This document shows positions 21,801 through 63,839 of a DNA stretch of 64,000 bases, piece by piece. The translations under genes were made by a program, and so were the position numbers. Where the stretch lies: positions 1,562,618 through 1,626,617 of the forward strand of contig NW_004797332.1 of NCBI RefSeq assembly GCF_000002075.1, read 5' to 3'. The notes under the pieces were generated by a model that saw nothing but the letters and a program-made list of their open reading frames with translations, was not told the origin of the DNA and did no database searches. Position 1 is the stretch's first letter, and every line of letters begins with the position of its first letter. The DNA is from Aplysia californica. Lineage: Eukaryota.

Positions 21801-23281
21801 TATTTCTATCCACTTTATTGGTCCAAAATGTAGCCCACTTCTGAATGAAAAGAAGTTAATGATTGTGAGTTTTGAGATATCTAATCATTTTTTTTCAAGG
21901 TTAATTAGAGTACTATGATAGAAAAAAATGTGTGTGTCTCGCTTAAAGAAAAAAAATTGGGAGAAAATCTGCATCACCCCAGATGCAAAAAGTTTGCCCA
22001 TATGTGAAAAATATTTGAAAAATGGGTATTCCAATGTAAAGCGCATTGAGCTACTTTTTTTTGGAAATGCGCTATATAAATGTTATATATTATTATTATT
22101 ATTTATGTGAATCTTTGTTTTCGGCTTTTTGAAACGATTATTGGATTTATAGTTTCCTTTAGCAAAGCACAGGGTTTCTCTCGCTTTAAACAAAATATGG
22201 TCCCTTACCAAGCAACTTTCTAATGTTCTGAACTTTCTGTAATATTGTTTTGTTTCTAGATCCATGTGCAGAAATATCAGTAGCGGTACCCTAAGCTCTG
22301 AAAAATTAAAAGAACTATATTGCAGTAATATGACTGGGGCCTTTTAGCAGGAAAATGAAGAAAAGGACAAGGCTTATAATGAAATTCTACTTGTGATGAG
22401 TAAGTTTCAAACTGAAGATCTGAAAATCTGAAGATTCCTGAGCTTCACAAGTTGATGTAATAATGATAAACCTTAAGCACACGTGGCAGCAAGTTGTTCC
22501 AATGTACTAAGCCCAAAATTTTTAATTTAAAAAAATTGCAGTTTCTTCATGTATGGTATCCATTGCAAGTGCTTGAGAAAAATGTTGTGGAAATTCAGAT
22601 TCTAAATGTTGAAAAGGCAACAAAAGATACAGAATGTTGGTAAAATTGTTTTTATAATGAAATAGTTCTCTTTCTTCTCCTGAAAAAAATTGTCTTTCTG
22701 GGCTTAGAATGCTTGCAGAGTTTGCTGACATTGTACTCGTTTATTTGTTCTCAGACCACACAGTACGAGTTCAAGCTGCAGGAGAACATATTCAGCAAAG
22801 TTCATGACCTGGGCAACGCCTTGCTGCCTCGTGCCGACACTGGAGCAGCTGCAGAGATCAAGGTAATGTCTCTTTACATCTGCGCGTCCTTGAGGGCATG
22901 GTATCCTCATATCAACTCAAATACTGTTTGTCCAAGATGGCCACTGATTGTCAAGAATCAAAGTGATTGCTTTGGCAGGTGGATATCTTGGACAGTGTCA
23001 TTACGATAGAAAAATAACGGAAATGGTCATTTGTAAAGGCACATTACATGAATTTTCCTCACTTCACCCAGGTGGGAATGGGTAGCTGGCCACAGACAGC
23101 GAAAGATCTTGTCAGTATGTCGTTAGTGTTTCAGCACCTATAAATTTCAGCTTGCACTGTATGCTTCCCGGGAAGTTGAGGTTGTTTCAGAATGCTCCCA
23201 GGTCTGCTGGGGTAATAGTATAGATTGTGAAACGCATAGAGATTGCTGTTGAGTGGGGATGTGCGCTATACAAATGCTATA

Positions 23282-23315
<34 letters not shown>

Positions 23316-32300: not shown

Positions 32301-35300
32301 TAACCCCCACCCATATTTTTTTCTCAAATTTTAATAATCTTTTTCTTTACATCTAGGTGGAGTGGATGGTTGGCGGGTGCTATAGTGTCGTTTGCTCCTT
32401 TTTCCTATCAAACATCTATCGTCCTGATCTCTCCTCCTTTTTTGTGTTTGTTACTCTCTTGTAACACCTCTAATCTCTGGCACTTATATGACCTTATTGT
32501 GTTGCAAGTTCCGTAAAACTCTTACTAAAACTATTTTTTAAAAACAACCTAGGTGGAGGACCTTCCCTCGAGTGTGGATCGTCTCCGAGAGTTGAGAGAA
32601 GCAGAAGCGACCGCCACACTGAGTCAGGTGGAGGAATACCTCAAGACGTCCCCTCCTGAATCACCACCTATGAGGAAAAGAACGGACGCATCACCAAGTC
32701 GCGTGACCATCCCCCCAGCACTACGCACAAGCTCCCCGATTGGCAGGCCAGGGTCACCGTCCAGAAGGTCACGATCGCCATCCCCCAGAAGGTCAAGGTT
32801 GCCAGGGAGCGGTTCTGGTTCGTCAGCAAGGATGAGTCCAAGACGATCATCATCCCCATCTAAAGTCGCCTTAGACATCATGGATGGAAGAGGTGACTAG
32901 CATTAGGAACATTGTGGCTCAGTTCTTTAGGACAGACCTCCCTCTTGGCTTGAATTAATTGAAACATTCCTTACACTTGGCGAGGTTGGAGGGTGCCATA
33001 TATAGGTCCTACTTCTTTTCTTTCTCTCTGTTGTTTCTTTCTGTCACTCTTACTTTTTCCCAGCACTAAATGACCATAATTATTATTGTGTCAATGTGTT
33101 TCTCTTTACCCAGACTCGGACACTTTCTCCTTTTTGGTCTCTGCTCGGATTGTTTTTCATCATGTTCCAATTTAATAGTTTCCATGACACTCTGAGAAAG
33201 ATGGCACTTATTGTTTTTGTCAAAACAAACTTTTAGAAATTACTGGGCACAACAAGGTATGGATTGCAAAACGCATAGAGCTTACTGTTGAGTGGGGATA
33301 TGTGCTATGCAAAATGCTATTTTTTCTTTTATTATTTATTCTTATTATTTGCATCCAGCAGTGGAAGGACAGTGCTTGGACCATTGTACTGCAGTAGTAT
33401 CTTTTGTTTGTCTTTCTTGCTTCATTGCCTTGTTGAACAACAGTGTGGATGGTTGGTGGGTGCTCTGGTGTGGTTTGCTCCTTCTTTAACTATCAAACAT
33501 CTATCGTCCTTATCTGGCAACACCTTCAGTATTTGGCACCTATATGACCTTATTGTGTTGCAAATGCTGTAAAACCCTTATTAAACTAAGCAGAACAATA
33601 ATCAATGTGCTGATGCGCTTTTCAGTATCTCAACTGACAAACATTTGTTTGTGCTCGTTGACAGAGTCTCCGCGACATGACCTTGGGGATCTCGAGCGCT
33701 CGGCAAAGATTGATGTCCTCATGGAACAGCTGGTGGAGTCACTGGACGACTGCAACGTCAAACTGGCCAGGCTGGAGGCAACCATGAGGTCCCAGGGCTC
33801 TGATGCTGAACACATGGTGAGTTGTAGTGAGGGGAAATTGTCGTTTTGTTGTGGTATGATCAGACAGAACATAAATATGGTGAGTTATAGTTAGGGTAAG
33901 AGTTATAGTTAGGGTAAGAGTTATAGTTAGGGTAAGAGTTATAGTTAGGGTAAGAGTTATAGTTAGGGTAAGAGTTATAGTTAGGGTAACTGCCATTTGT
34001 TAAGCTATGGTCAAAGATCTTGCCACTGATGCAGAACAGATGTTGAGTTGTATTAGGGAGAACCACCATTTGTCATAACATTAATATCCTCTCCCCCGCT
34101 TTTCTCCTGCTACTACAGATGCAGCTGATGGTGGAGTGTGAGGTGGCGGTGGACAATGTGCGGAGACTGGACCGCCTGCTCAAGACAGAGACCAGGGTGG
34201 ATGTCATTGCCAGCGCTGATGCAGAAGTCAGATGTAAGCTTTTCATCTGGTTTTTTGGGGGTTTTTTGCTCCTTAAGTGGTCAGGCTCCCTGAATCGCAA
34301 CCCTAAGTCGTGGGTTCCAATCCTGTCAGGGCCCAACTTTGTGTCCTTGGGAAAGGCACTTTGCACAAATTCCTCACTCCACCCAGGTGGGAATGAGTAC
34401 CCAGCTATAGACAGCGAAAGATCTTGTCAGTTTGATAGTGTTTGAGCGCTTAATCAGCTGCTTGCATTGTATGTTTCCTGGGGAGCTGGGAATGTCTCTG
34501 AGTGTTCTATGGTCTGCTGAGGTAATAATATAGTGTAAAGCTTGCTGTTGAGCGTGGGTATGAGCTATACAAATGCTATTTATTATTATTATGCATCTAA
34601 TCTTTGTCTAGTGTTGTTTTATGTTCTTATTTACCTTTTTTCTAGTACTTTGATTGGATTTCTTTAACTCCTTTTTAACTCCCAACTGTTCTGATTTCAT
34701 ACTATTCCTCTTTAGAAGAATTGTCACCCATGAAAATATGAATAACCTACAAATCTTCAAATTGATAGCGAGAAGTCATCTTAATTTGTAAATATGTATT
34801 AAATTTTACTTACTACGTAAATTTTTAGATGAAAATATTTTAAGAGTGTTAAAGGAGCTTCTTACTAGAAAGATACATATATCTTGTAAGTGAACTGTTA
34901 GGCTAATGCAACGACTGATGATTATCAAGAGTCTCTGGAGACAACAATCAACCAAAAAAAAAAAAAAGATTCAACCTCCCAAGAAAGGGACCATGTTAGA
35001 AAGAATAGGTGCATTTGTTTAAAGTAGTCAAATGTGAGGAGCCAGAAGAAAATCAGTCGGATCTCACTAGTCCTGGAGCTAAGATATTACCAAACGGAAT
35101 GAAAATATTTGTTTAGAATGGAAAATGAGTTACTTGCATAATGAAATACTCCAACATCTTATTTAAGTGTTCTGAAAAAAAAATACTTGAAAAACAACTA
35201 GAAATGTGTTTTTAAACGATTTCTTAACATGTTGGTGAAAATGGAATGTTCTGACTTCAAACCCGGATTTCTCGCAACTGAGTACCAGGGAGATGACTGG

Positions 35301-38300
35301 CTTAATATGCTTATATCTTAGCTTCTAATTAACATATTTCAAGTCAGCAAACTCCCATTTACTCAAGAGATATTGAATATCTGATTGTTCATATTGCTAT
35401 TTTCACAACTGTTTGATTTTCCCATAGCACCTTGGGTGTATCTGACTGTGAAAAGGGAATTGATTAACTTAATAACTATAATTAATCATTATACATTATA
35501 TTTTGTGCAGTGGTGATACAGAGGTGGGAACACCTACAGAGGCGAGCCCTAGACCAGGACTTGAAGGTATCCCAGGAGAGACATGACCTGGTCCAGTTTG
35601 CCGGCGAGCTGGACAATATGCTGGCCTGGCTGGACGAGGCGGAGGCTTTGCAGGCCACCCACCGCACGCTCCCGTCGGACATCAGCCAGCTGGACAGAGT
35701 TGTCAGGCAGTACAAAGTGAGTATGATTAGAGACAGTTGTCAGTCAGTGTGAAGTGAGTATGGTGAGAGACAATTGTCAGACAGTGTGAAGTGAGTATTT
35801 TGAGAAACAATTGTCAGACAGTGTGAAGTGAGTATGGTGAGAGACAATTGTCAGACAGTGTGAAGTGAGCATGGTTAGAGACAATTGTCAGACAGTGTGA
35901 AGTGAGTATGGTTAGAGACAATTGTCCGACAGTGTGAAGTGAGTATGGTTAGAGGTGATATTTTGACTAGGTACAATTGTCAGACAGTGTGAAGTAAGTA
36001 TGGTTAGAGACAGTTGTCAGACAGTGTGAAGTGAGTATGGTCAGAGACAATTGTCAGACAGTGTGAAGTGAGTATGGTTAGAGACAATTGTCAGACAGTG
36101 TGAAGTGAGTATGGTTAGAGACAATTGTCAGACAGTGTGAAGTGAGTATGGTTAGAGACAATTGTCAGACAGTGTGAAGTGAGTATGGTTAGAGATGATA
36201 TTTTGACTAGGTACAATTGTCAGACAGTGTGCAGTGAGTATGGTTAGAGACAATTGTCAGACAGTGTGAAGAGAGTATGGTTAGAGACTGTTGTCAGACA
36301 GTACAAAGTGAGTATGGTTAGAGACAATTGTCCGACAGTATAAAGTGAGTATGGTTAGAGACAATTGTCAGACAGTATAAAGTGAGTATGGTTAGAGACA
36401 ATTGTCAGACAGTATAAAGTGAGTATGGTTAGAGATGATATTTTGACTAGGTACAATTGTCAGACAGTGTGAAGTGAGTATGGTTAGAGATGATATTTTG
36501 ACTAGGTACAATTGTCAGACAGTGTGAAGTGAGTACGGTTAGAGATGATATTTTGACTAGGTACAATTGTCAGACAGTGTGCAGTGAGTATGGTCAGAGA
36601 CAATTGTCAGAGAGTGTGAAGTGAGTATGGTTAGAGACAATTGTCAGACAGTATAAAGTGAGTATGGTTAGAGATGATATTTTGATTAGGTACAATTGTC
36701 AGACAGTACAAAGTGAGTATGGTTAGAGATGATATTTTGATTAGGTGCAATTGTCAGACAGTGTGAAGTGAGTATGGTTAGAGACTTCGTTACCTCAAAT
36801 TACAAAGCACTCTCTGACATATTTGGCCGTTTTGAGTTACTAGGACAATGAGGTCAGAAACCAAATGTTCAATCTTCTTTATAAAAATCATAAGATTATA
36901 CAGAGTCATTATCAAGATATTCAAAGAACTGCATGCTTTTTAAGAACTGCATGCGAAAAAGCTTGACATGATGTGAAACTCAAAATCTTTTACATCAAAT
37001 TTCTCAAAGCTAGGTAGGCCTACTGAGCAGACAGAACTTTGTAATTCTGAGACAGCGACTTGTCAGACAGTGCAAAGTGAGTATCATATTTTAACTCGGT
37101 AGAGATACAATATAACACAGTCTTTTACCAAATCACGCTAAATAAGCTTTGAATGAAGACACAGAGAACGAAAATATAAGTGACATCATAACTTCCTTTT
37201 CCCCAGGACTTCCTGGTCCAGTTAGAGTCCAAGAAGAGCACAGTAACATCGATCAATTTGCTCAGTCGTAACTACCTCAGTATGAAAACGGCAGAAACAA
37301 GACAGCTGAAGGCAAAACTGAATGAGATGAACCAACGGTGGGAACTTGTTCTCACCAGAGCCACAGATATCCAGAGAGATCTACAGGTAAGACGTTTGAT
37401 CTTCCAACAAGGCAAAGGCAGCCAGTAGAACTGTTATCTGCATACTCAGTACCAGTAATCGCACTAGTTAAAGTTATCATGGTGATTTATAGTTTGAGTT
37501 TGTCGCACTGGCTGAAGATAAAACACAAGTTGCTAATGCTTTGAGTAAATCTAACAGTTAATCTTCCTTTTCAGAGTGTGTAAATAATTTGTAAACAATA
37601 AACTAGGAAACAGAGTTGAATTCCGCTGAAAGAACAAGAATTTGTGAGTCCCAAGAATATGAATTGGTTTAATAAATCTATCAATTACTCAACAACTTTA
37701 TCCCCTTGTAAGTTCTATGCGTCACTGTATGGAAATGAACTGAAGCCTTGTCCATTCTCACACTTTCTCTATTTTGTGTTCAGCGATCGCTGATACAGTG
37801 CCAAGAGTTCCACCACACCATCCATGACTATCAGTTGTGGCTCGAAGGAATCGAGGCCAAAGTCCGGCAGTGCGAGGCCATTCCTCCCAACGCAGAGGAG
37901 TCTGCTCTCTGGGCCAAGTATGCCATACTCATGGTAAGTTCAGGACACAATATTCTTTGTGTTAATGGCTTTGATTACACAGTCAACCACGCACATAGTG
38001 AAATTGGCAGCGAGGCAAAAACCTTTTCACTATGTACGAATTTGGCTGGGCACATGTTTTAAATACAAAGAATATAACGCATTGGAAAAAAATCTGTTCG
38101 TTGTATGCGTGCTAGATCGTATATTTGGCTTCCTTTTCATAGTGAGATTTTATTTTTCAGGGTAAGGTAGAAGTCACTTCTTGTTCTCCAGGTGATCTCT
38201 TGNNNNNNNNNNNNNNNNNNNNNNNNNNNNNNNNNNNNNNNNNNNNNNNNNNNNNNNNNNNNNNNNNNNNNNNNNNNNNNNNNNNNNNNNNNNNNNNNNN

Positions 38301-41300
38301 NNNNNNNNNNNNNNNNNNNNNNNNNNNNNNNNNNNNNNNNNNNNNNNNNNNNNNNNNNNNNNNNNNNNNNNNNNNNNNNNNNNNNNNNNNNNNNNNNNNN
38401 NNNNNTCTTTCCCTCTTTCAATTGTTCTCTTTTGCCCCCTCTCCTATACCACTTAAAATTGTAATAAGTCACCTCATTCAGCTTGTAGTTTATATCTTCC
38501 CTCTTTTTCTCTCTACGTCTTTACAAAACAAGGATCTGAACGGGGAACTGCTTCACAAACAAACCAAAGTCTACGCCCTCAAAGAAACCGCAGACCAACT
38601 GCTGGCCAGCACCGACTCGCCCGAGATGTCAACTGCTCGTGATAGCGCCCTCATCATCAACAACCGTCTCGGCGATTTGCTGCATCTGACATCTGGTTAT
38701 TTGTCTAGTCTCGAGACTCGTCTGCATATCACACCCAAGCGAGGAAACACAGTATGTATAAAGTTTGTGTACATGAATAATACACTGTATGTACTCGTCT
38801 ATAACACGACCTTGGGTATAATATCAGGGGTATACTTTGTCTCCAAAATAAATTGGCCCACTTTTGTAAGTTTTATGTAAGTTCTATGTATAGCATAAGC
38901 TGAATTTCTGATTTGATGTAGGGGATTCAACATGCTGGAAATCCAGTACTAGTGTGGCATCAAATATATGTCTGACTTTTAAGAAGTGTTGGTTGTTGCA
39001 TAGAGATTGATTTAATCTGTGAGAATGGGGTGGCAGGTAATCCAAACAAGACGTCATGATGTGTTGTAAAATCCAGATTTGTAAATAAATCAGATGAAAA
39101 AGTACATGGCATTACTTCCCCTTAGTTGGGCTGGATCCTGGTTGTGTGTCACACAAACAAAACGATGGGGGGGGGGAGTATTTTTGTGCTCCTTTTTTTG
39201 GAAAAACTGCTTGTATTATAGTGGAGTGTATACGTTAATAGTAATGTATTTGTGAGCTCTGGTGGCTGAGTGGCTACTGACTACTGAGCTTAGGCTCATA
39301 GTACTGTCAAGCATGTGTGGGTGATGAAGCGTTCAGGTGATGGGTGTTCTTGAACAAGGCAGGATTCAATAGCTCATCTGTCAATGTCACAACGATGACC
39401 AATATATCCACAGAGGAGAATATTTCTCAGTGAAATAGAAGAATTTGAAGGACTAAAGGTTAAGATGACTTGTGGCTTCTGCTGTGGACCAATTCTTGCA
39501 GAGAAAAGTTTGCCACATTTTGAGCATTCAAAACTCCACTTCCACCTGTATATGTGTGGATGTGCACAGTTTGCGGGCTTCTCTCTTAGTTTCAGCATTT
39601 GAGCAAGACATGACAACCCTAGTTCAAAAACAAGGTGCTGCACAGTGGCGATCAGCAGTGGTGTGTAGATTGTCTATGTTTGTGATTTTGTGTATTTTTT
39701 TTGTCTTTACGTATCATGAAGATCACCACTTGGTGTTTCCTATCCCTGAGAGATATATATACCTGCTACCCTACTGTGATCCCCATGGCAATTCCAGATG
39801 TTGCACACTGGGTCAAGTAGAAGAAAATGCAAGGGCTTTAGTTTATTTTTGCCCACTTTCATTTATATGTCACTATTGCAAAGTCATAACAAAAGCAGAT
39901 ATAATAAAAAATAATTATTATGTCATTAAATCGCCTGTTTGTTTACATTTGTGTGTTCATCAGCCGAGCAGTTTTGATCTGAGCGAGGAGAGGTCATCTG
40001 GGTTCGGCAGTTTAGCAGCCTCAAGGTCATCGACCCCTCACCGTCCAGGTCTTCCCACCACTGTCCGTAGGTCCCGATCACCGTATGCAATCGCCCGACA
40101 GGTAAACGCGAGAAAGATAAAGTAGATGTGCCAAACTCATATTTTATAGTGTGTGCCTTGTATCTGTAAGTAAGTGCCAATAGCCTTGTTTCTTTCTCTT
40201 TTTTTTTCTCTCTCGCAGTAGGTAAGTGCCGCCACCTGCCTTCTTTTCCAAATAAAGGCAATGCTTTTGTAATTGAAAGAGAAGAAATAGATTCCTTTTT
40301 TCTCTTGGTGGGATAGACACTGAGATATGTTTGTTGAATATTTCAGCTTTTATACAAATATCGTCTGTTTATGGTTAGAATAATGTTGTATTTGTCAACA
40401 CACACTCGTAAAAATTAATTGATATTTCTTCATACTATGTTGTTGATTATATGAAACAGTGGAAGTACAGTAAGCATGGAACGTGTCTGTATCTACCTAT
40501 ATTATATATATTCATTTATTCTGTTATTTATTATATGATATATATTAATCTATTGAATTTCAAGATGCAAAAAAAATTCCCACTTTTAAAGTAATTGTTT
40601 GTAAAGAGGCGAAATAATCAAGTTTCTAATGTTTGTGTCTCTCAGTGATAGCACATCTTTTAGCTTTTGTTATCATGAGCACAACGAAAATCCTTAGTGG
40701 GCATTATCAAACAACTCTCAGTTTGATTATGTTTTGCTGTTTCATTATGGGTTGTTTTTTTTATTGGCTCAAGCTTACTGTCCTGTGTAAAAGGCTTACC
40801 CTTTCCTCCTTTTGATTTTGTCTCATTTAATTGTTCAAAATGTATTTTGGAAAATCTTGTATTCCTGCTGCACACAAAACAATATGTGTTTTTGCCGTGC
40901 ACTGCGGCAATGTGAAAAAGACTTCACCACTGAATTTGTGTAATGGGGAGCATTAGCAGACAAATATGTACTGCTTTTTTGTGTGACAAACTAACATTTC
41001 ATTCTAATTATTGGTTGTTTTTTTCTCTCTGTTAAGACGTATCCTATGAAAACAAGAGTCGGTTTCCAGAACGTTCTTTTCTAAGTTCATACCATATGAG
41101 TATGCTAAAGGTCTACACAAACAGTTTTAGTGAAACGATAAATTAAAAGTAATTTAAAAGACTCAAGATTCTATCAGACTTTGACTGATCCTGACTTCCC
41201 TGTACTATTTTACTTTTTGTTTAATCCGAGTACTTAAGACTTTTTGGAGATTTTGACAAAAGATGCATCCTTCAACCTGCCTTTGATGTTGATTAGATCT

Positions 41301-44300
41301 GTTATGTGAAGATTGAATCATTTTTTGGTACCATACATAGCCCAAGATTACTGCAACAGTTTTGTTTTCTATAGTAAAATTTATTTTTTTTCAATACCTG
41401 TCTAATGTAGATATAATCAACATTTTCATTGCTAGTAGACCTTTGTGCTATTTTTACAACTGACATGAGTTCACATTATGTCTAACAGTTTCTGTAATGC
41501 ATCAAAGAATGTCCTTCCTGGACAATGTGGTGGATTCAGTCTTGATGCATTAGACCATCATCACTCTTATATTCTTAGTTTCTAATAACTTTTTGACTTC
41601 TTGAAAAGATAAACAGGCCTTATGTTACCACATCCAATAACTGTGCTATGATCTATTAATTGTCAAGCATACTGTATTTCTAAATTTTATCCTAATTTCT
41701 TTCATGCTAAAGTTTCTGTACCATATATTTATCACTTTTAGTTTGTAGGCGTTTCCATTTTTTAATTTAATTTTTGTTTCTCTTTTCAGTCAATTTATCT
41801 TCAGTTTTAATTTCATTTCTTTTATATATGTATTTATTTTGAAGTCAGTTTGTCTTGAGCACATCTTCACCATTGTCCTTCCGACATTTCACCTCATTCC
41901 CATGATGCTTTTGGTCCACAGTTTCTAATGAGAATCGCAAGTCCTTTTCTACCATCGAGCTCACAGGATAGAGACAAGTAAATCAATGTCGCACCCCTCA
42001 CTTGTTAACGGGGGGATCGACAAAAGTTTTTCCCTAATTTTTTGTTCATTTTTTGTTGGTTCTATCCCTTCACTGTCTCTCAGGCGGCAGGGTATGCCCC
42101 TTGTATGGAATGCGGGAGATTTAGCTAAAGAAATAATTATTTCACAGCTGTCACTTCATTTCATACCATGTACCAGTTCACCCATGGCCGTTGCCTCATT
42201 GCTCATCGCTTTGCCTGACTCTAGCCGCTTATCTCCTTTTTTTATGTTTTGAGAGTGCATCTTACATGGAAATGTCAAGTGCATTCTCTCTTCATGTGCA
42301 TGATGTATGTTGTTCTTGTCCCCCACTTAAGAGCATCGTGCAGAACACTGAAACGGAGAGCAGATAATAATTTTCTTTTCTTTTTTTTTTTTGGACTGGA
42401 ATATTTTCTCATTTTTATACTTTTTTAATGCAATAGTCGTATTTCTAAAGGAGCTGGGATTTTTGGGGGCCTGAAATACAATTTATTGTTCTCATATTTA
42501 AAGGTTGTTTTTTTGCTTTTTGTGTGGGGGGGGTTTTCTCTTATACCATTTGTCTATATTTCAATTTAATAAGTAACTTATTTCTTTCTTTTACCTTTTT
42601 TCAATTTTTTATTTGTGTTTCATTACTTCAGTATGGGGTCCATCTTTTTTTTCCCAAGTCAAGATATGTTGCACTTCTCTCCAGTTTTCAGGGTATCAAA
42701 AATGCTCTTTAACATCACTCACCTGAATAACCCTGGGGAAATAGCGTCCTGGGCAGTGGGTGGATGCTCACATCTAACAGCATGAAGCGCAAAAAGCACC
42801 TCGTACTCAGTAGGAAAATAATGCGAATAGAATGAAATCTTGTACATGTTGGTCATGGGGGCTTATTTCTGTGTAAAAAATGGATTAGTTTGTAGGGATA
42901 ATCCATCAACTAACAGTAATTACCCTGTCCCTTTCCTTTCCTTGACTTCCTTGACCTAAATAAGCTACCCAGTTCCTTTTAACAAATGACAGTAGTTAAC
43001 TAAATGATTTGAAACCTGGCCTTCTTTGTACTCTCTCTGTCCTTGTAACTGTCTTGTCAATAGCTCTTCCCGTCAGAGATAACAAACCTTAACCCATACT
43101 GCCTTTTTGTCTCCCTTGCCTATAATTTCTCACCCTGATCTGTGCCTTATTCCATCTCAGTCTGTCTTTTATAGACAAAAACGTCCAAACATGATTTTCA
43201 TAGTCAAAGCATCAGGAAAGTGGGTCATTGAGATTTCTAGGTAAATAAATTATGTGTGTTCATCAGCCTTAATGATAACATTGAAGTCTTTTTTGTTTTC
43301 CTTCCACACAAAAAAACAACTTTACCAGCAACATGAACTATGTCAAAAAATGTTTTCATAAAGAGACATTTTGGTTTACAATTTACAGCCATTTAAAACA
43401 GATGTGGAGCAAAGTTGATGCTGGATTACATTTTTGGCGTGTGATTATACATTCCTTTCCAACCCCCCCCCCCCTTTCCCTGTTACTCTCTTTAAATTCA
43501 AAGTGTACACCCATAAAAAAAAAAAAAAATCTTCAGCATGCTGCAGTGATGGGATTAGTCCTATTTAAGTTTTAAAAAACAATTGGCCCACCTTGACTAA
43601 CAATGGCTTACCACCACGTTACAAAATTGTGCAAATGCATCAACAAATTTCCAAGTTTTAACAAAGAACACCATTATGGACTGAATTAAGAAAACACATG
43701 AAATCTGGAAGTTTTGGGATCTTTTCAACAATGTGATAAATGACTCGGGCCATTATCGCAGCATGTTGAGGACATCCTTTATTTATTTTATTGCAACCGC
43801 AATTTCTTAAAGTTAAGGCTTTCAGTCACTTTTTTTTTAACCCCAAGAAGCAAAAGTATTGGTTCTCTCCAAAGCTATGTGCTTAACCTCATCCTTTCCT
43901 CCTTAAGACTTGCGTTGATCAAATCTTATGTGCTTTGCTTTAGTAATATAAATTGAAATAAGCCTACATATTAAATGTGTATACCAATCAACAACAGTCT
44001 ATATAATTTAATATAAAAAGCTGCTACTATAATAATCTGTAGCACAGTATCACACGCTTATGCTTTGTTGAAATCTTGTCTTGTCGTGCAAAAATTAGGC
44101 TTTGTAAAGTTGCACAAAGCCAAAATCAGCACAGAATTATTTCAAGAACTCAATCAAATTATTATATTCGTCGTAAGCCCAGGAAAAGCATTTGCTCCCA
44201 GGTCTCCATTTGTTTTGCCATCCATAGGTAGTTGGAGGGCATCTCTGAAAGGCCCTGGTTCTCTTCTTTCTCTCTGTTATTTCTGTCTGCCTATCTGTTT

Positions 44301-47300
44301 TCTCCATGCTCTAAATGGCTGTTGCAGGTGGTGTGTGGGTGGTGTGCGGGTGTTCTGGTGTGGTTTGTTCCTTCTTTCCTATAAAAAATCTATTGTCCTT
44401 ATCTCTCTTCCCTTTTTGTGTTTGTTACTCTCTTGTAACACCTCTAATCTTCAGCACTTCTAAGACCTTATTGTGTTGCAAGTGCCGTAAAACTCTTACT
44501 AAGGGACTGGATGGCTGCTGTCTTGTCAGCATGTTTTTCTTTCTCCAATTCTTCAACTCAGTGCTTTCCCAGTACCCGGTATACAAATATTTCATCAGTT
44601 CCATTCTAGGTAAAAATCCCTGTTTGTGTACGTTCAAAAGCAGAGCACTTTGCCCAGTACATGGAAAGAGCAAAAGAAAAAAGAAAAGAAGGAAATGCAA
44701 ATAAAGTTAACTGCACATGTATAGTCACATCTGATCATCGGTGGATATTTTTTTTTTTGTCAACAAGTTGCCTTCCCTGCATTATAGGTTTAATACAAGT
44801 ACTTATTATTCCGTTGTCAGACAGACTGTTGTGGCAAGTGTTGTTTGCTGCTCATCAACTCTTTCTACATACGGTGTCTTTCCTGGTGCCTTCCTAGTGT
44901 CTTCCATTGTCTTTTTAAAATTTTATACATTGCTCGTTCATTCTATGTCATCGTACAACACTTACATTCTACTGCTGATGTCCAGCCGCACATCAGCCTA
45001 CATCTGCAGCCCAGCTGACTTAAAAGGCGAGAGGGATTTTGTCTCGCGCATTATGTGTTATTTTTTTTTTATGTAATCTAAAATTTTCTGTGGTTTTCAA
45101 TAGGTTCATAATTTTTTTGCAGTATAGTCTAAGTGATTTTAATGAATGAAAGACTTGGAAAGATCTGCAATTTTTTTTTTATGTGTGTGACTGCAGAGTA
45201 AGTCTACTCATATATAATTTAAATGACTGTGTATTAACTTTTACTTTGTGAAAAGAAAAAAAAAGGACGTAGAAGACTGACCTGGCCATCGTCAAGAGAT
45301 ATCAGGATCAAGACCTAACTCAGCAAAAGCTACTAATTTGGCACAATATAACTGAATTGACACTCGACCTTGAAGAGCAAATATGTTTGATTTTAAAGGT
45401 CAAAGTCGAATTAACCACATCCAGTAGAAGTTGTACCAGAAGGGCAACTGTTGCCCCATCTATGAAGGAACATTTGGCCAACACTAAATAATTATTTGGG
45501 GTTTTGGCTTTTTTTTTAAAGAAAAAATTGATACCCTCAGATGATGTGCGTTCGTTTTTCTTGTTAAGTAAATCTGTTGTCCTGCAATCTTTTTTTTTTA
45601 CCCACATATATGTGTCTGATCCCAGTGTCTTAAATACGTGTTGTGTATTGAATGCAGTTGTATGTTTTTGTTTAGGAGGTGAGGTGGGTTGTTTGTTGTT
45701 TGGGTTTGTTTGGGTTTTGGGAGGATTTTTTTATGGGGGCGGGGATGGAGCTGTTGTTGTTTTTTTAGTTTAGTTTTTTGTTTTTTGTTGGGGGGGTTTT
45801 TTTGGGGGGGAAGGGAGAGAGAGAACAATATTCTGGCACTGGTTCATTTATACTAGTATTTTGGGGTTAATTTCCCACATCTACACTGGTTTGCCAAAGG
45901 TCAAGAACCTTTAGTGCAGACCTGTTTTATCCCATTCATTCCAGGTTGACCCTGTTGGTGGTTGGTTTTGCTCCGATGTGGTTCTCTCCTTATCTCTCCT
46001 TCTTTTTTGTGTTTGTTGCTTTCTTGTAACACCTCTAATCTTCAACACTTATATGACCTAATTGTGTTGCAAGTGCCGTAAAATGCTTACTAAAACAAGG
46101 TTGTCCATATCAGATAGGGGGGATGCTTCACTTCTCATATAAATTGTACCGTGCCAATAAAGTAAAACATATTACAGTTGGTGAAATCGCTACCATTGTT
46201 CAACATGGTTACAAACTACAGAGCTTTTGCTTCGAGTGGGTGGTTGGTGGGTGCTCGGGTGTGCCTTTCCTATCAAACATCTAATGTCCTTATCTCATCC
46301 TATTCTGTTCTCTGTATGTTACCCCCTAGTAATAGTAACACTTCTAGTCTTCGGCACTGATATGACTTACATGTATTATATTTGTGTTTCAAGTGCTGTA
46401 AAACTCTAACTGAAAATAGAAAAGTTAATTCATGACAACTGTACAGCGCTACTCATAAGTGTTTATAGGAAGAGGGAACAGAACTAGCCAGCCCACTGAA
46501 GTAGAAATAAGCTCTTCGGACGACTGTGTTTAAAAGTGAAGCTTTTTTTTCTATTGTTCATCTTTGCTCATTCTGTTTATTCATCCCATTTCTCCATTGT
46601 TTGTGAAATGTTTTTGAATGGCTATGATTAGAATCTAAACCTATAATGTCAGTTTATAGAAAACGAAAAGACAAAATTGTAAAATACTATTGTATTTCCT
46701 CTAGAATGTGGTTCGTGGCGGGGGTTTTTTCGGGGTTTTTTTTGTTTTTACGTGTTTTCAGTTTGAAGACACTGATCAAAAAGGGAAGAAAAGAATCGGG
46801 GAATTCTATTTTTGTTCTGTTGACTACTTTTTTTCGGATTTACAGTGTTCGGTTTTAGGGGACTCCACAGTATTTTCACAGTTTCCTTTCATTTTAAGTT
46901 GTTGAGCAACAATTTAGAAATCTAAATAGTGATAGTCCCAATTGATTTGTAAATTTATTCCAAGGGGATTGAATAAGATATAGAGGATTGGTCTATTTCC
47001 AAATCCTTGAGGGCAACCCTTATGCCTGTGTTGCTCTGTATCACTTGGTTTATTTTGTTCACATCTACTCAGTCTTAACATCTTTCATTATTATTTCCTG
47101 GCATCTCTTCCATGCGTGCTCATTCAAAGCAGTGCAGCATTACGGTGTGCTCACGTGGTATTTCTTACTAACTATAGTCTTTTTGTGCTGACCTGTGTTG
47201 TCTCTTCGTGCTTCGGCAGGGATGTTGATTCCTCTCGATGTTGCTGGACTCCAAGTTTATTGTAACTCACACAGTTTGCCATTTCTATTTTGTAAATAAC

Positions 47301-49175
47301 TTATTTGTGTAGGCTGTAGAAATATTTCAGGTATCTCTCGTGACTTTAGAATTTGTCATCGTTGCTTTGTAGCGTACTTTTTATGTTTATGTATATTCGT
47401 GTTTTAAAACATTCGTATACATAGATCTGTGCATACATGTGGACATGTTATCTCTTTGCAGATCTTTCTTTGGTTATAGAAGCTGCTGTATGAGTGTCTG
47501 CTTACAAATAAGATTACATGAATATCATAGGCTATCTATCAGTGATGTTCTTCTTGCTTTGTTTAGTTTGCAAAAGTCCATTATATATGTCTCTATGTAG
47601 GCCTACTTGTATCCTGCACATGAAGACAAGCACATTCATGACAATAATTTTCCAGCTTCGGCCTTACTGACACTCAGTGCCAAGATGTACTCTCATGGGA
47701 CAACTGGTTATGGAAAAATTGTAAACAGTCGGAATCTACCTTTCCTTTTCAGTTCTGCCATCATTTTCTAAAGTACAGTTTTTACAGTTTCACAGGAGAG
47801 TCAAAATTCGAATGCTATTACCGAGAAAACAATTGTATTTGCTTTAAAGATCACAAGGAAGTTATCAAAATTGTATTCTTAAAAATATTGACTTGAGATG
47901 TTTGCAAAGAGTTTGTTTTTTTGGTAATATCATTCAGTTTTTTTACTCCTGTAAAATTGTACAAATCAGGTCAACGTTCAAATGCATATACTGCGTTTAT
48001 TAAAGGACAACAGAGTTGCTCTGTAGACATAATTTTGTGTGTTTCTGTGAGTGTAGACGAATGATCCCGTATTCTATGAACTGAAAATAATCCCAAGTCT
48101 TTAAATATTTGAGTTAACGTTATTATGATAAGGGGGTCATGGAGATTGAAGAATACATAATGCATTCCGTTTTCTGCATCATTAAAGTTTGAATGTTTCC
48201 CAGCCCTGCAAGGTTTGACTATAACTATAACATTAGACAGCCGATGGATAGACTGAGCGGGGTTGTGTTACTCAGTACATTTTTTTGCTTCTTTTCTTTT
48301 CTGGAATATCGGTACTTTCATGGTCTCATGGTGTTAATATATACAATGTTATTTGATTTACAAGAAAACTGTGATATATTAAGTTCACTCAGTTTGTAAC
48401 TTGTAAGCAACTTTATGGGTGGTAGTCAGGGTTACAAAGTATTTTAGTACCAAAAACCCATCACATTATGTTAACATAATATCCTTCGGTTCTAATAATG
48501 ATAACCCACCATATTTTGCATGCTTCACAGTTTGCATGGCTTGCACATGTTTTGGAGTCAAATTGTTAAGTTAATAGTTGTATTAAGAATATTTGTACTC
48601 ACTATACATACTCATATTTGAATAGATGGAACTACCTAAAAATTTGTAAACACATTGTGTATTACTTAATTGAAATGATGATAAGTTATTTTGTCAAGCG
48701 TTAAATTAGTTCAAGTAAAGGTTTGAGTTTGAGTTATCAGGGCTGTCACATACTTTTTACCAAAAACTTAATGCAAACAAAAGAACAGACGTGAACTTCA
48801 AAAAGATGAGTAACCAGTCTCAATGTTTTCTTCTCATCACCAAATCAAATTCCTCTGTAGTGCAAGATTAATGATACAGGTACAATGGAGCTGTTTTAAA
48901 TTTCAGTATGTTGTTTTTTTTATTTCCACAGTTTGAGTACAGATCATGAGACCGCAAGAGAAGTTTCGGCGCTCACAAAATCTCAAGTCCGTCCATCGTT
49001 ACTTATGCGTGTAATACGTGCTGCCCTGCCTATTCAACTGCTGTTACTACTGTTACTTCTCTTAGCCTGTCTTGTTCCTGTGTGTGAAGATGAGTACAGC
49101 TGCCTGCTCAGTAATAACCTGCGACACTCCCTCTCTCCAATGTTGCGATACACTGATGGGGCCCCACCCACCTAG
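627..49175 (+). CDS. SYNE1: Nesprin-1-like giant KASH protein (SYNE1/MSP-300/ANC-1 family), 3' portion; 46 exons, 5'-incomplete
   Basis: 46 GT-AG exons with consistent phases sum to 8331 nt and read as one open frame of spectrin-repeat sequence. Segments such as ELQEDIERHSAGVSSVLNLCEVLLHDSDAC, WRNICSLSPQRRTRVEETWRMW and LELINRQYRQLAKEGRTD closely resemble the vertebrate nesprin-1 C-terminus (recalled, not aligned). Ends in TM + KASH. Confidence 0.95.
879..1310. mobile_element. MITE family C (~40-bp imperfect TIRs)
   Basis: ATATGTG..GAAATCAGGCGCTC / GAGCGCATGATTCC..CACATAT; homologous to 31712-32157 and 58063-59851. Confidence 0.75.
1833..2137. mobile_element. piggyBac-like MITE (TTAA flanks)
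   Basis: TTAA|CTCTTTATCT ... AGATATAAAG|TTAA; second copy at 2411-2685. Confidence 0.7.
2223..2384 (+). CDS. SYNE1: nesprin exon w2 (EAKKDQEK..DENR)
   Basis: gtcag|GAG..AGG|gtaaga; phase 0/0. Confidence 0.88.
2411..2685. mobile_element. piggyBac-like MITE, second copy
   Basis: TTAA|CTTTTTATCTCCG ... CGGAGATAAAAA; colinear with 1833-2137. Confidence 0.7.
3131..3259 (+). CDS. SYNE1: nesprin exon w3 (EIQEEING..VHLQ)
   Basis: tttcag|GAA..CAG|gtaaac; phase 0/0. Confidence 0.88.
3706..3926 (+). mobile_element. tRNA-derived SINE; related copies on the minus strand near 51740-51900, 52960-53165, 54195-54345
   Basis: TGGTGTAGTGG A-box and GAGTTCGATTCC B-box, followed by a non-tRNA body repeated elsewhere. 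Confidence 0.7.
3970..4182 (+). CDS. SYNE1: nesprin exon w4 (TELGQFKL..DIHK)
   Basis: cacag|ACG..AAG|gtaagt; phase 0/0. Confidence 0.88.
4736..4933 (+). CDS. SYNE1: nesprin exon w5 (ELATDIKQ..RKPG)
   Basis: ctcag|GAG..GGG|gtaagg; phase 0/0. Confidence 0.88.
5000..5190 (+). mobile_element. Penelope-like element terminal-repeat remnant (boundaries approximate)
   Basis: Carries the minimal hammerhead typical of PLE pseudo-LTRs, followed by an ATAAAA/T-rich segment. Confidence 0.45.
5058..5094 (+). ncRNA. Minimal type-I hammerhead ribozyme motif (Penelope-like element type), possibly inactive
   Basis: GTTC-CTGAGGA-T-GCCC(gttga)GGGC-GAAA-CATT-GAAC: stem I GTTC/GAAC, CUGANGA and GAAA core, 4-bp stem II; stem III looks 2 nt short. 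Confidence 0.65.
5495..5671 (+). CDS. SYNE1: nesprin exon w6 (ELVKISLH..QQYQ)
   Basis: tacag|GAA..CAG|gtatgt; phase 0/0. Confidence 0.88.
6333..6428 (+). CDS. SYNE1: nesprin exon w7 (SALQNVSGW..RQNE)
   Basis: cccag|TCC..GAG|gtgtgt; phase 0/0. Confidence 0.85.
6916..7230 (+). CDS. SYNE1: nesprin exon w8 (KLQKEIRS..SNNQ)
   Basis: tacag|AAG..CAG|gtcagc; phase 0/0. Confidence 0.88.
7337..7523 (+). repeat. (CT)n-rich simple repeat next to a gap
   Basis: Direct reading. Confidence 0.9.
7524..7741. other. Assembly gap (others at 38203-38405 and 63639-63811)
   Basis: Runs of N; the first two are intronic and flanking exon phases stay compatible. Confidence 1.
7782..7928 (+). CDS. SYNE1: nesprin exon w9 (KIEVQLKK..LHRR)
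   Basis: tctag|AAA..CGG|gtaagg; phase 0/0. Confidence 0.88.
8205..8430 (+). repeat. ~28-bp minisatellite (~8 copies) running into a splice acceptor
   Basis: AAATTCAACCATGTCTTTTTCACACTCT-like units. Confidence 0.85.
8443..8613 (+). CDS. SYNE1: nesprin exon w10 (AMEKKASL..TAHK)
   Basis: tccag|GCT..AAG|gtgagt; phase 0/0. Confidence 0.88.
9120..9274 (+). CDS. SYNE1: nesprin exon w11 (DFFSDLEV..HGQ)
   Basis: cccag|GAC..AG|gtcagt; phase 0/2. Confidence 0.88.
9920..10063 (+). CDS. SYNE1: nesprin exon w12 (LERLTRQW..KLA)
   Basis: accag|A..AA|gtaaga; phase 2/2. Confidence 0.88.
10325..10511. mobile_element. ~190-bp MITE family A (CAGTCAAAC-like ends); other copies near 155-330, 1358-1550, 4188-4390, 22920-23360, 56200-56390
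   Basis: Shared core TTGTCTTAGACAGGTGGA.TCTTGGACA.TGTCATT and end CAGGTT(T/C)GACT in six places, both orientations. Confidence 0.7.
10615..10788 (+). CDS. SYNE1: nesprin exon w13 (YKQLQAEL..ELK)
   Basis: ttcag|A..CG|gtgagt; phase 2/2. Confidence 0.88.
12332..12494 (+). CDS. SYNE1: nesprin exon w14 (TETLGDQL..EKVL)
   Basis: ctcag|G..CTG|gtatgt; phase 2/0. Confidence 0.88.
13055..13381 (+). CDS. SYNE1: nesprin exon w15 (EFKKEVEG..KKYK)
   Basis: tacag|GAG..AAG|gttagt; phase 0/0; in-frame alternative acceptor 60 nt upstream. Confidence 0.87.
13788..13976 (+). CDS. SYNE1: nesprin exon w16 (GYKIELSS..ATLE)
   Basis: tccag|GGT..GAG|gtatgg; phase 0/0. Confidence 0.88.
14719..14859 (+). CDS. SYNE1: nesprin exon w17 (SLQSKWGD..KDCK)
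   Basis: gacag|AGT..AAG|gtgagt; phase 0/0. Confidence 0.88.
15045..15267. mobile_element. MITE with 25-bp inverted repeats
   Basis: GTGCTGACAAAATGAGTTACTTCTC ... GAGAAGTAACTCATTTTGTCAGCGC (24/25). Confidence 0.75.
15450..15639 (+). CDS. SYNE1: nesprin exon w18 (ALQQQLQA..NLLT)
   Basis: cccag|GCC..G|gtgtgt; phase 0/1. Confidence 0.88.
16097..16239 (+). CDS. SYNE1: nesprin exon w19 (MFGQWARY..DKLK)
   Basis: cccag|AC..AAA|gtgagt; phase 1/0. Confidence 0.88.
16335..16567 (-). mobile_element. RTE-clade LINE 3' fragment
   Basis: Minus-strand translation TTGKFDRKEGRGRQRE..KWRSMIAHASRQGTG* plus (GAT)n tail parallels the element at 62683. Confidence 0.75.
17162..17328 (+). CDS. SYNE1: nesprin exon w20 (GLQSELRN..LSD)
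   Basis: caaag|GGC..AG|gtgaga; phase 0/2; an in-frame CAG acceptor 9 nt downstream (start 17171) is an alternative. Confidence 0.8.
17911..18070 (+). CDS. SYNE1: nesprin exon w21 (CAKFEGCL..SKSK)
   Basis: tgcag|G..AAA|gtaagg; phase 2/0. Confidence 0.88.
18609..18833 (+). CDS. SYNE1: nesprin exon w22 (KLQKELDN..NAFE)
   Basis: catag|AAA..GAG|gtaaag; phase 0/0. Confidence 0.88.
19535..19698 (+). CDS. SYNE1: nesprin exon w23 (LVKKFLDQ..NDL)
   Basis: ctcag|CTT..GG|gttagt; phase 0/2. Confidence 0.87.
19708..19815 (+). repeat. (AAT)n-like microsatellite
   Basis: Direct reading. Confidence 0.9.
19921..20078 (+). mobile_element. SINE fragment (Nin/Deu-domain-like) with a stem-loop 3' tail
   Basis: GGACATTAAAGATCCCTTGGTGGTC motif; tail GTGCTC-ATATGACC..GTTGC-GAGCGC similar to family B. 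Confidence 0.45.
20334..20577 (+). CDS. SYNE1: nesprin exon w24 (YRLALNEA..RKCK)
   Basis: tctag|G..AAG|gtgagt; phase 2/0. Confidence 0.88.
21387..21713 (+). CDS. SYNE1: nesprin exon w25 (QFENEMYS..EKVK)
   Basis: tccag|CAA..AAG|gtaaga; phase 0/0. Confidence 0.9.
22755..22862 (+). CDS. SYNE1: nesprin exon w26 (TTQYEFKL..AEIK)
   Basis: ctcag|ACC..AAG|gtaatg; phase 0/0. Confidence 0.88.
23564..23776 (+). CDS. SYNE1: nesprin exon w27 (NTLDQLQR..NKCR)
   Basis: atcag|AAT..AGG|gtagat; phase 0/0. Confidence 0.88.
24468..24664 (+). CDS. SYNE1: nesprin exon w28 (DIATSFLN..AMF)
   Basis: tccag|GAC..AG|gtgagg; phase 0/2. Confidence 0.88.
25297..25414 (+). CDS. SYNE1: nesprin exon w29 (WTNLGERM..KLET)
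   Basis: ttcag|A..ACG|gtaagt; phase 2/0. Confidence 0.88.
25719..25885 (+). CDS. SYNE1: nesprin exon w30 (EYKEEMME..MDF)
   Basis: cacag|GAG..AG|gtaaga; phase 0/2. Confidence 0.88.
26349..26511 (+). CDS. SYNE1: nesprin exon w31 (QRKLQETV..HHTQ)
   Basis: aaaag|A..CAG|gtaaac; phase 2/0 (AAG acceptor). Confidence 0.85.
27282..27469 (+). CDS. SYNE1: nesprin exon w32 (ELQEDIERHSAGVSSVLNLCEVLLHD..RRT)
   Basis: tgcag|GAG..AG|gtcagt; phase 0/2; highly nesprin-like segment. Confidence 0.92.
27890..28040 (+). CDS. SYNE1: nesprin exon w33 (VEETWRMW..RKYE)
   Basis: tctag|G..GAG|gtatga; phase 2/0. Confidence 0.9.
29235..29399 (+). CDS. SYNE1: nesprin exon w34 (NLQKKVHD..RVTE)
   Basis: ttcag|AAC..GAG|gtaaga; phase 0/0. 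Confidence 0.9.
29783..29938 (+). CDS. SYNE1: nesprin exon w35 (IMKTLRHS..NEIR)
   Basis: ttcag|ATC..AGG|gtgagt; phase 0/0. Confidence 0.9.
30577..30777 (+). CDS. SYNE1: nesprin exon w36 (RIEDEVHT..MVAQ)
   Basis: cacag|CGC..CAA|gtatgt; phase 0/0. Confidence 0.88.
31060..31140 (+). mobile_element. Decayed LINE reverse-transcriptase fragment
   Basis: Translates VELQLADDVHLLACTKSEL*E, resembling the (Y/F)ADD region of non-LTR RT. Confidence 0.4.
31712..32157. mobile_element. MITE family C copy
   Basis: Colinear with 879-1310 over its full length. Confidence 0.75.
32363..32531 (+). mobile_element. Retroposon 3'-end family B (~170 bp); copies near 6623, 9357, 15924, 26765, 28056, 28383(-), 33386, 44334, 45955, 46234
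   Basis: Shared TCCTATCAAACATCT..GTAACACCTCTAATC..GGCACTTATATGACC..GTTGCAAGTGCCGTAAAAC..ACTAAAA; this copy is flanked by a 10-bp direct repeat. Confidence 0.8.
32553..32892 (+). CDS. SYNE1: nesprin exon w37, SP/SR-rich linker (adaptive-domain position)
   Basis: cctag|GTG..G|gtgact; phase 0/1, needed to join w36 to w38; acceptor is duplicated upstream at 32356. Confidence 0.82.
33665..33816 (+). CDS. SYNE1: nesprin exon w38 (SPRHDLGD..AEHM)
   Basis: gacag|AG..ATG|gtgagt; phase 1/0. Confidence 0.85.
33882..33989 (+). repeat. 18-bp minisatellite x6 (GAGTTATAGTTAGGGTAA)
   Basis: Six identical units, each containing TTAGGG. Confidence 0.95.
34119..34233 (+). CDS. SYNE1: nesprin exon w39 (MQLMVECE..EVR)
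   Basis: tacag|ATG..T|gtaagc; phase 0/1. Confidence 0.87.
34270..34592 (+). mobile_element. tRNA-derived CORE-like SINE with (ATT)n tail; truncated copies near 5990-6270, 22030-22105, 23035-23312, 33255-33350
   Basis: A/B-box-like head (AAGTGGTCAG..GGTTCCAATCC), CORE-like GTGTCCTTGGGAAAGGCACTT..CCACCCAGGTG, tail GCTATACAAATGC(TAT)n shared among copies. Confidence 0.75.
35511..35716 (+). CDS. SYNE1: nesprin exon w40 (VIQRWEHL..RQYK)
   Basis: tgcag|TG..AAA|gtgagt; phase 1/0. Confidence 0.88.
35699..36785 (+). repeat. Minisatellite, 37-bp and 55-bp units, ~26 copies, derived from an exon/intron junction
   Basis: Unit ATTGTCAGACAGTGTGAAGTGAGTATGGTTAGAGACA; the 55-bp variant adds ATGATATTTTGACTAGGT. 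Confidence 0.95.
36786..37058. mobile_element. MITE-like element; inverted copy at ~54460-54695
   Basis: Imperfect TIRs CTCAAATTACAAAG / CTTTGTAATTCTGAG; body matches the reverse complement of 54460-54695. Confidence 0.7.
37207..37386 (+). CDS. SYNE1: nesprin exon w41 (DFLVQLES..RDLQ)
   Basis: cccag|GAC..CAG|gtaaga; phase 0/0. Confidence 0.88.
37784..37933 (+). CDS. SYNE1: nesprin exon w42 (RSLIQCQEFH..AILM)
   Basis: ttcag|CGA..ATG|gtaagt; phase 0/0. Confidence 0.88.
38533..38751 (+). CDS. SYNE1: nesprin exon w43 (DLNGELLH..RGNT)
   Basis: acaag|GAT..ACA|gtatgt; phase 0/0 (AAG acceptor). Confidence 0.82.
39964..40101 (+). CDS. SYNE1: nesprin exon w44 (PSSFDLSE..IARQ), Ser/Arg-rich pre-TM linker
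   Basis: atcag|CCG..CAG|gtaaac; phase 0/0; SRSSTPHR resembles vertebrate SGRSTPNR (recalled). Confidence 0.82.
41922..41977 (+). CDS. SYNE1: nesprin exon w45, 56-nt bridging exon (FLMRIASPFLPSSSQDRD)
   Basis: cacag|TTT..AA|gtaaat; open frame that converts phase 0 to the phase 2 required by the KASH exon. Confidence 0.6.
48932..49175 (+). CDS. SYNE1: nesprin terminal exon: TM helix + KASH domain
   Basis: ttccacag|T; RVIRAALPIQLLLLLLLLLACLVPVCEDEYSCLLSNNLRHSLSPMLRYTDGAPPT* matches the KASH consensus (Cys -23, Pro -11, Tyr -7). Confidence 0.96.
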
Positions 49176-63575: not shown

Positions 63576-63839
63576 AATGACATAATAATAAATAGCATAA
63601 CACACTGTAGGGGGCGTAGATAGAGAGAGAAAGAGCGANNNNNNNNNNNNNNNNNNNNNNNNNNNNNNNNNNNNNNNNNNNNNNNNNNNNNNNNNNNNNN
63701 NNNNNNNNNNNNNNNNNNNNNNNNNNNNNNNNNNNNNNNNNNNNNNNNNNNNNNNNNNNNNNNNNNNNNNNNNNNNNNNNNNNNNNNNNNNNNNNNNNNN
63801 NNNNNNNNNNNAATCGATTGGGGGCGGGGGAGGAGGCAA

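Follow-up and report, generated by a model that had tools for sequence, protein, structure and literature searches.

The window, by which we mean the whole 64-kb stretch of Aplysia californica DNA that was analysed, carries on its forward strand the 3′ portion of a nesprin-1-like gene whose start, where any N-terminal calponin-homology domains would be encoded, lies upstream. The gene was modelled with 45 exons in a single open frame of 2,772 codons that ends in a KASH domain; of its introns, the first eight were placed by hand, as were two later junctions, and the last junction and the acceptor of exon 15 are uncertain. The last exon (48932–49175, + strand) matches the KASH profile PF10541 with an E value of 1.1e-24, which is above the cut-off, and the Elysia chlorotica protein RUS76916.1 is collinear with the window from 7782 to 49172 (tblastn). 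The name nesprin-1-like is based on these two matches, which show spectrin repeats and a C-terminal KASH domain, it being noted that single-exon matches to the spectrin profile PF00435 score under the cut-off. The nesprin-1/SYNE1-like proteins of Elysia, Pomacea, Pinctada, and Lottia are likewise composed of spectrin repeats and then KASH.

Some features of the gene and of its surroundings should be mentioned for completeness. Exon 37 (32553–32892) encodes a Ser/Pro/Arg-rich low-complexity linker between spectrin repeats, without a Pfam match. The last intron (40102–48931) is about 8.8 kb long, the median being 637 nt, and has candidate donors at 40102 and 40122, of which just 40122 is in frame with the KASH exon; given this single in-frame donor and the length of the intron, the model may lack a small exon. 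Assembly gaps are located at 7524–7741, 38203–38405, and 63639–63811, the first and the last adjoining dinucleotide microsatellites. Several introns contain members of a dispersed repeat family (34343–34592, 23026–23293, 6054–6259, and 33276–33332; about 75% identity), which ends in short ATT/TAT repeats and is SINE-like by appearance only.

Exon 40 and its authentic donor

Exon 40 (35511–35716, + strand; 206 nt) codes for the first half of a spectrin repeat and exon 41 (37207–37386, + strand) for the second half. The 5′ splice site between exon 40 and its intron, AAA/GTGAGT in phase 0 (35717–35722, + strand), is of medium strength, 25 of the 43 other donors scoring above it, and the acceptor of exon 41, with 13.4 bits (leave-one-out), is the second highest of 44. 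An exhaustive homology search with exon 40 gave 39 hits, of which 6 were looked up; the named relatives are mollusc proteins (RUS76916.1 of Elysia, the nesprin-1-like XP_025103988.1 of Pomacea, the KASH protein KAK3090342.1 of Pinctada, and ESO86158.1 of Lottia). A word-index search for homologs with the same exon yielded 59 candidates, none at an E value of 0.001 or less.

The claim of the sequence-only reading that 35717 is the true donor is borne out by these comparisons. The Pfam Spectrin profile runs uninterrupted across the junction from 35716 to 37207, with positions 1–43 in exon 40 and 44–103 in exon 41; all five named mollusc proteins continue across the junction with nothing inserted, and in those of Elysia, Pomacea, Pinctada, and Lottia the same residues flank it. 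The conserved junction and the continuity of the profile thus identify 35717, from sequence comparison, as the coding donor, which the predicted protein needs. All ten homologous single-exon open reading frames leave the homology at the identical codon, from which it follows that the intron position and the exon end are old and that the array described below was copied from them.

The array in intron 40 and its history

Across this donor lies a minisatellite of 26 units (35700–36785, + strand; unit starts from 35700 to 36751), which was seeded by the last 17–18 nt of exon 40. It had been proposed that the unit consists of the end of an exon called w40, which is exon 40 of our model, and the start of its intron, with 25 further units at 37- and 55-nt spacing up to 36768; this is true and was reproduced. 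The 25 full intervals are 18 of 37 nt and 7 of 55 nt, an 18-nt insert setting the longer unit apart from the shorter one, and the 26th unit matches over 35 nt. The units are on average 95% identical to their own consensus, and the 24-nt unit pattern has 26 matches with at most 3 mismatches versus 0.00 in 100 shuffles. As in minisatellites of the F7 or "mirage" type, the first unit spans the authentic exon–intron boundary and the splice signal recurs in many units, though not in every one.

The donor positions extend from 35717 to 36768, the 25 pseudo-donors lying at 35754–36768. GT is kept in 24 of the 25 downstream units and the exact GTGAGT in 22; the altered ones are GTAAGT at 35994, GTGAGC at 35865, and a site at 36271 that has lost its GT. 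The variants at 35994 and 36271 had been noticed before, that at 35865 had been missed. GTAAGT at 35994 had also been regarded as an improved site, but the gain over the true donor is just 0.3 bit (9.5 vs. 9.2 bits with the position weight matrix) and the duplex with U1 is no stronger (−7.5 vs. −7.6 kcal/mol). Most pseudo-donors equal the true donor in strength (9.1–9.2 vs. 9.2 bits), and 22 of at least 9.0 bits are found in intron 40 versus 21 in the other 43 introns (37,443 nt) combined. Perfect 10-bp palindromes GACAATTGTC (n = 14, at 35769–36645, not assigned to a strand), together with 21 8-bp cores, are found at the unit junctions; the junction between units 1 and 2 lacks the perfect form present at most of the others.

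The units bear the marks of tandem turnover, in that variants are shared by neighbours (one is common to units 2–4, another to units 17–19) and the long units are gathered at the 3′ end, five of the seven being among the last eight units. The most divergent units are unit 1 (6 differences) and unit 3 (4 differences), and the last unit has the consensus sequence, so that the 5′ edge alone is excluded from homogenisation. The local clustering of variants, as in real turnover, also bears on the objection that the array is an artefact of the assembly, for which it can be said that the window contains three runs of N, the nearest at 38203–38405, and that the copy number may be mis-estimated. However, N is absent from the array itself, distinct sequences make up 21 of the 25 full units, exact internal repeats reach at most 116 nt, and the element and the displaced copy downstream of the array, considered next, add an independent layer of history. 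We therefore regard an artefact as highly improbable; the array is real and belongs to a class already described in humans and amphioxus.

Downstream of the array there is a 260-nt MITE-like element (36793–37052, not assigned to a strand) with imperfect terminal inverted repeats, the 19-nt arms of which are 84% complementary. A 75% identical copy with shared ends lies in opposite orientation at 54455–54688 (E 1e-47), the copies being 230–260 nt long, and the element is thus short, dispersed, and bounded by inverted repeats. No clear target-site duplication flanks the intron 40 element, and at the other copy it has at most 2 nt. On the far side of the element follows a displaced, more diverged copy of the exon end and donor (37060–37110, + strand; donor at 37077). 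This detached copy had already been pointed out, but the DNA that parts it from the array is the dispersed element rather than unique sequence. On its intron side the displaced copy is similar to the 18-nt insert of the long unit, which suggests an older, longer unit. Without the element the last two donors would be 49 nt apart, and the displaced copy is therefore best read as the former tail of the array. What remains of intron 40 after subtraction of array and element is 179 nt. New in this analysis are the finding that the displaced copy is cut off by the MITE-like element and the second donor-derived repeat in intron 38 treated at the end.

Outside 35690–37120 no match to the unit longer than 11 nt was found in the window. 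On account of this result and of the conservation of the exon end in molluscs, we rejected the idea that the array stems from a dispersed satellite or the core of a transposon by which the exon end was captured. The array probably began as a short tandem duplication across the donor that spared the first copy; slippage and unequal exchange would then have amplified it, perhaps with the aid of the palindrome at the unit junctions. In the course of the expansion the copies of exon end and intron start acquired point variants and the 18-nt insert. The neutral slippage that the sequence-only reading had offered as an alternative to function fits best, and the origin of the array from the segment of exon end and donor is supported.

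Downstream donors and the use of the first

The first in-frame stop past the true donor, a TGA at 35750–35752 (+ strand), ends 1 nt ahead of donor 2. Every downstream donor takes in this TGA, drops the 316 C-terminal residues including KASH, and leaves four further junctions downstream. It is established knowledge that such premature-stop transcripts are targets of nonsense-mediated mRNA decay (NMD), and with the TGA included and four junctions still to come, transcripts from downstream donors should be NMD targets. The earlier statement that the TGA leads to KASH-less or NMD transcripts is supported, but so early a stop is ordinary: of the 43 other introns, 21 show a stop in frame no more than 36 nt past the donor, the median being 37 nt. 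With donor 2 the exon would be 243 nt long (5 of 43 internal exons are longer) and with donor 4 it would be 317 nt long (3 of 43 are longer). Skipping of exon 40 was also considered and discarded, as it would give a frameshift and an immediate stop.

The intact conserved frame of 2,772 codons implies that the first donor dominates, a conclusion which draws in addition on the conserved junction and on analogy. By analogy with human F7, the most upstream donor would be used almost exclusively by the spliceosome. The cause is probably positional: the change from a GC-rich coding exon (60% GC) into a repeat of 39% GC, together with the rarity of long exons, would favour definition of the exon at donor 1, as would first-come selection in the 5′-to-3′ direction. 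A small leak to donors 2–3 is plausible and, carrying a premature stop, would probably be degraded. It should be noted, however, that the downstream donors are equally strong and not clearly masked by structure, which speaks against the use of the first donor only. In addition, duplicated strong donors in HeLa cells and in vitro are reported to be used increasingly at the intron-proximal site beyond a distance of about 30 nt and almost completely at 45 nt or more (PMC3413131), and relative to this switch at 30–45 nt the 37-nt spacing sits in the transition zone. The spacing of the array is thus that at which mammalian duplicated-donor assays begin to favour the downstream site.

How the first donor wins had been called an open question. 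For the human F7 gene, with the same 37-bp spacing, there is an experimental answer (PMC1557585), although not in a mollusc. In intron 7 of F7 the pseudo-sites of a 37-bp array are described there as functional but not competing, the first site alone being used; the next site is used once the first is lost, only perfect sites compete, and no competition came from stronger downstream sites with CV values up to 91 (PMC1557585).

Could the later donors be specifically silenced, either by the in-frame stop upstream of them or by hairpins between the palindromes that flank them? A pure repeat of unit 1 would have its first stop after donor 2, and it is the derived majority variant that has moved the TGA just ahead of this donor; stem-loops between the palindromes can take in each donor; and latent donors behind stops have been reported to be silent and activated by stress (PMC3510495). 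The placement of the TGA is, however, one event at chance frequency, and a transcript from donor 2 is frameshifted whether the stop comes before or after the donor. In F7, pseudo-sites without a stop are unused too, and no masking structure was found for them (PMC1557585). As to structure, the folding z score against plain shuffles is −2.1 for 35600–36000 and −8.4 for 35733–36400, but only −0.9 when compared with shuffled units in tandem, 30 of 200 of which were equally stable. In co-transcriptional folds donors 2 and 1 are comparably open (0.58–0.85 vs. 0.58–0.66), and with three window sizes the first donor is surpassed in openness by 9, 8, and 3 of the 25 downstream ones. With the z score falling on the tandem control and accessibility not singling out donor 1, RNA structure was rejected as its main protector, and specific silencing altogether appears very unlikely to us.

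A probably neutral array and its possible functions

Our preferred reading, to which we give a probability of about 0.8, is that the array is a tolerated, effectively neutral boundary minisatellite, or "mirage". The proposals that it is a decoy array, a copy-number tuner of nesprin or a sink for U1 find no support. The donor motif is neither retained nor purged above the rest of the unit, although the power of the comparisons is low: 3 variant alleles fall on the 6 donor positions and 18 on the other 31 (binomial p = 1.0; 21 alleles in total), and for the window from −3 to +8 the counts are 6 alleles at 11 positions versus 15 at 26 (p = 1.0). Mismatches occur in 3 of 156 donor cells versus 39 of 804 other cells (position permutation p = 0.24).

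The 55-nt unit had further been credited with a weak acceptor ahead of its donor. With a matrix built from 44 acceptors of the same gene, the AG of this unit reaches no more than −0.8 to −1.6 bits, less than 42 of the 44 real acceptors (leave-one-out), and it is variant in 2 of the 7 copies; the proposed acceptor is thus not credible. The best internal AG in intron 40 has 4.6 bits versus 14.5 for the true acceptor. An internal acceptor, a micro-exon or recursive splicing via the 55-nt unit was rejected because the scores are too low.

Nor does the genome seem to have a bias to duplicate splice junctions, a further explanation that was tried. Copies of a junction within 1.5 kb (at least 18 of 24 positions identical) are found for 2 of 44 donors and for 1 of 44 acceptors, which is not above the background of 193 of 2,888 intron positions (6.7%); for the donors Fisher's test gives p = 0.77 with the array excluded from the intron background. 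Among the 16 merged tandem arrays inside the gene span, one overlaps a modelled junction.

The functional alternative holds that the length or composition of the array sets the share of transcripts that go to NMD or lack KASH, or that crowded U1 weakens splicing of exon 40 in cis. In its favour are the 22 strong pseudo-donors, which match the 21 of the other 43 introns combined, and the fact that each downstream donor leads to a stop. The literature also contains parallels: the CBS repeat is reportedly associated with lower enzyme activity, associations of human tandem repeats with splicing variation are common (PMC10078293), and KASH-less nesprin isoforms are mentioned. Nevertheless, the donor is not conserved in excess of the unit, the position of the stop is at chance level, the acceptor is not credible, and junctions are not enriched for copies, on which grounds the claim of copy-number tuning finds no support. 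The 5–51-residue read-through tails of the ten homologous exon 40 frames contain no repeated exon end, which, concerning protein only, is a weak argument. A length effect in cis might exist and yet not be adaptive. We consider a functional tuner unlikely, but the importance of the array would be much greater if allele length changed the output of KASH-bearing nesprin.

Two roles for U1 were weighed as well. U1 belongs to the most abundant RNPs of the nucleus, for which reason it cannot be titrated by a kilobase of a single nascent transcript. The array is indeed a locally dense cluster of U1-complementary sites, but all it adds to the 21 strong latent donors of this portion of a single gene is another 22, which is trivial in trans; no Rfam match was found at 33500–37800. 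A trans-acting sink for U1 snRNP is therefore extremely improbable. Guarding by U1 against intronic polyadenylation was also dismissed, AATAAA and ATTAAA being absent from intron 40, which has just five TATAAA and two AATATA.

For the neutral reading, the F7 and amphioxus arrays serve as precedents. The array resembles that of F7 in that the first unit spans the exon–intron border, the period is 37 nt and the donor is repeated unchanged downstream. It differs in size and composition, F7 having 5–9 units with 4 exonic nt and Aplysia 26 units with 17–18 exonic nt, a 55-nt variant and a transposon-like insertion; moreover, use of the first site was measured in F7, whereas in Aplysia it is deduced. 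In the amphioxus "mirages" (Adh3 and the globins BflGb6 and BflGb9) regular splicing is described as undisturbed and the length as unstable (PMC3087553). These, too, are invertebrate tandem duplications of a border, with splice signals in many but not all units and local homogenisation; however, they belong to a different phylum, and length instability and normal splicing were demonstrated there, whereas the array in Aplysia is known from one assembly. Of the human arrays, in which the donor is reiterated 10–25 times, intron 2 of IFI6 (6-16) has 25 pseudo-sites, the same number as Aplysia, and uses two extra sites; intron 13 of CBS, with a unit of 24 exonic and 7 intronic nt (PMC2630376), uses two extra sites as well, and LMNB2 and PDGF use the first only (as cited in PMC1557585). 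The extra sites of IFI6 and CBS speak against strict use of the first donor, and either pattern is conceivable for Aplysia.

In a literature search that paired no nesprin with repeat terms and covered few subscription journals, no earlier description of an array of this kind turned up for any mollusc. The Aplysia array adds a mollusc example to the class known in humans and amphioxus, and it implies that the most upstream donor wins in a gastropod gene too, despite 24 equally strong rivals. It also provides a ready natural reporter and a marker that is likely to be polymorphic, and it can mislead gene prediction programs.

The donor-derived repeat in intron 38 (33817–34060, + strand; true donor at 33817) is independent of the intron 40 array. 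An identical 9-mer copy of the donor lies 63 nt downstream at 33880, in frame and without a stop between; it is followed by a perfect repeat of 6 × 18 nt (33882–33989), whose five donor-like junctions have 9.7 bits versus 8.5 for the true donor, and by a GT-dead donor copy at 34043. Use of 33880 would add 21 residues, an insert that is absent from the Elysia protein. Judged by its sequence, this copy is a better candidate for a tolerated alternative donor than is the intron 40 array, but 2 of 44 donors with a nearby copy does not exceed the background. One may go further and suppose that the donor-seeded repeats in introns 38 and 40 are heritable, length-variable dials on nesprin, with donor 33880 contributing the 21-residue insert and with an appreciable part of the transcripts being diverted to NMD or to forms without KASH by longer alleles or stress; taken together, these two suppositions are decidedly unlikely. 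If they were true, the dosage of the LINC complex would for the first time have been shown to be tuned by a boundary minisatellite, and donor choice in a mollusc would stand at the 30–45 nt switch between upstream and intron-proximal selection.

Two other repeats near splice junctions were seen in the gene. A diverged copy of the exon 22 acceptor is present at 18532, together with short repeats of 24 and 14 nt in the polypyrimidine region (18500–18609), and a pyrimidine-rich minisatellite (8226–8428; 7.2 copies of 28 nt) stops 15 nt ahead of the acceptor of exon 10.
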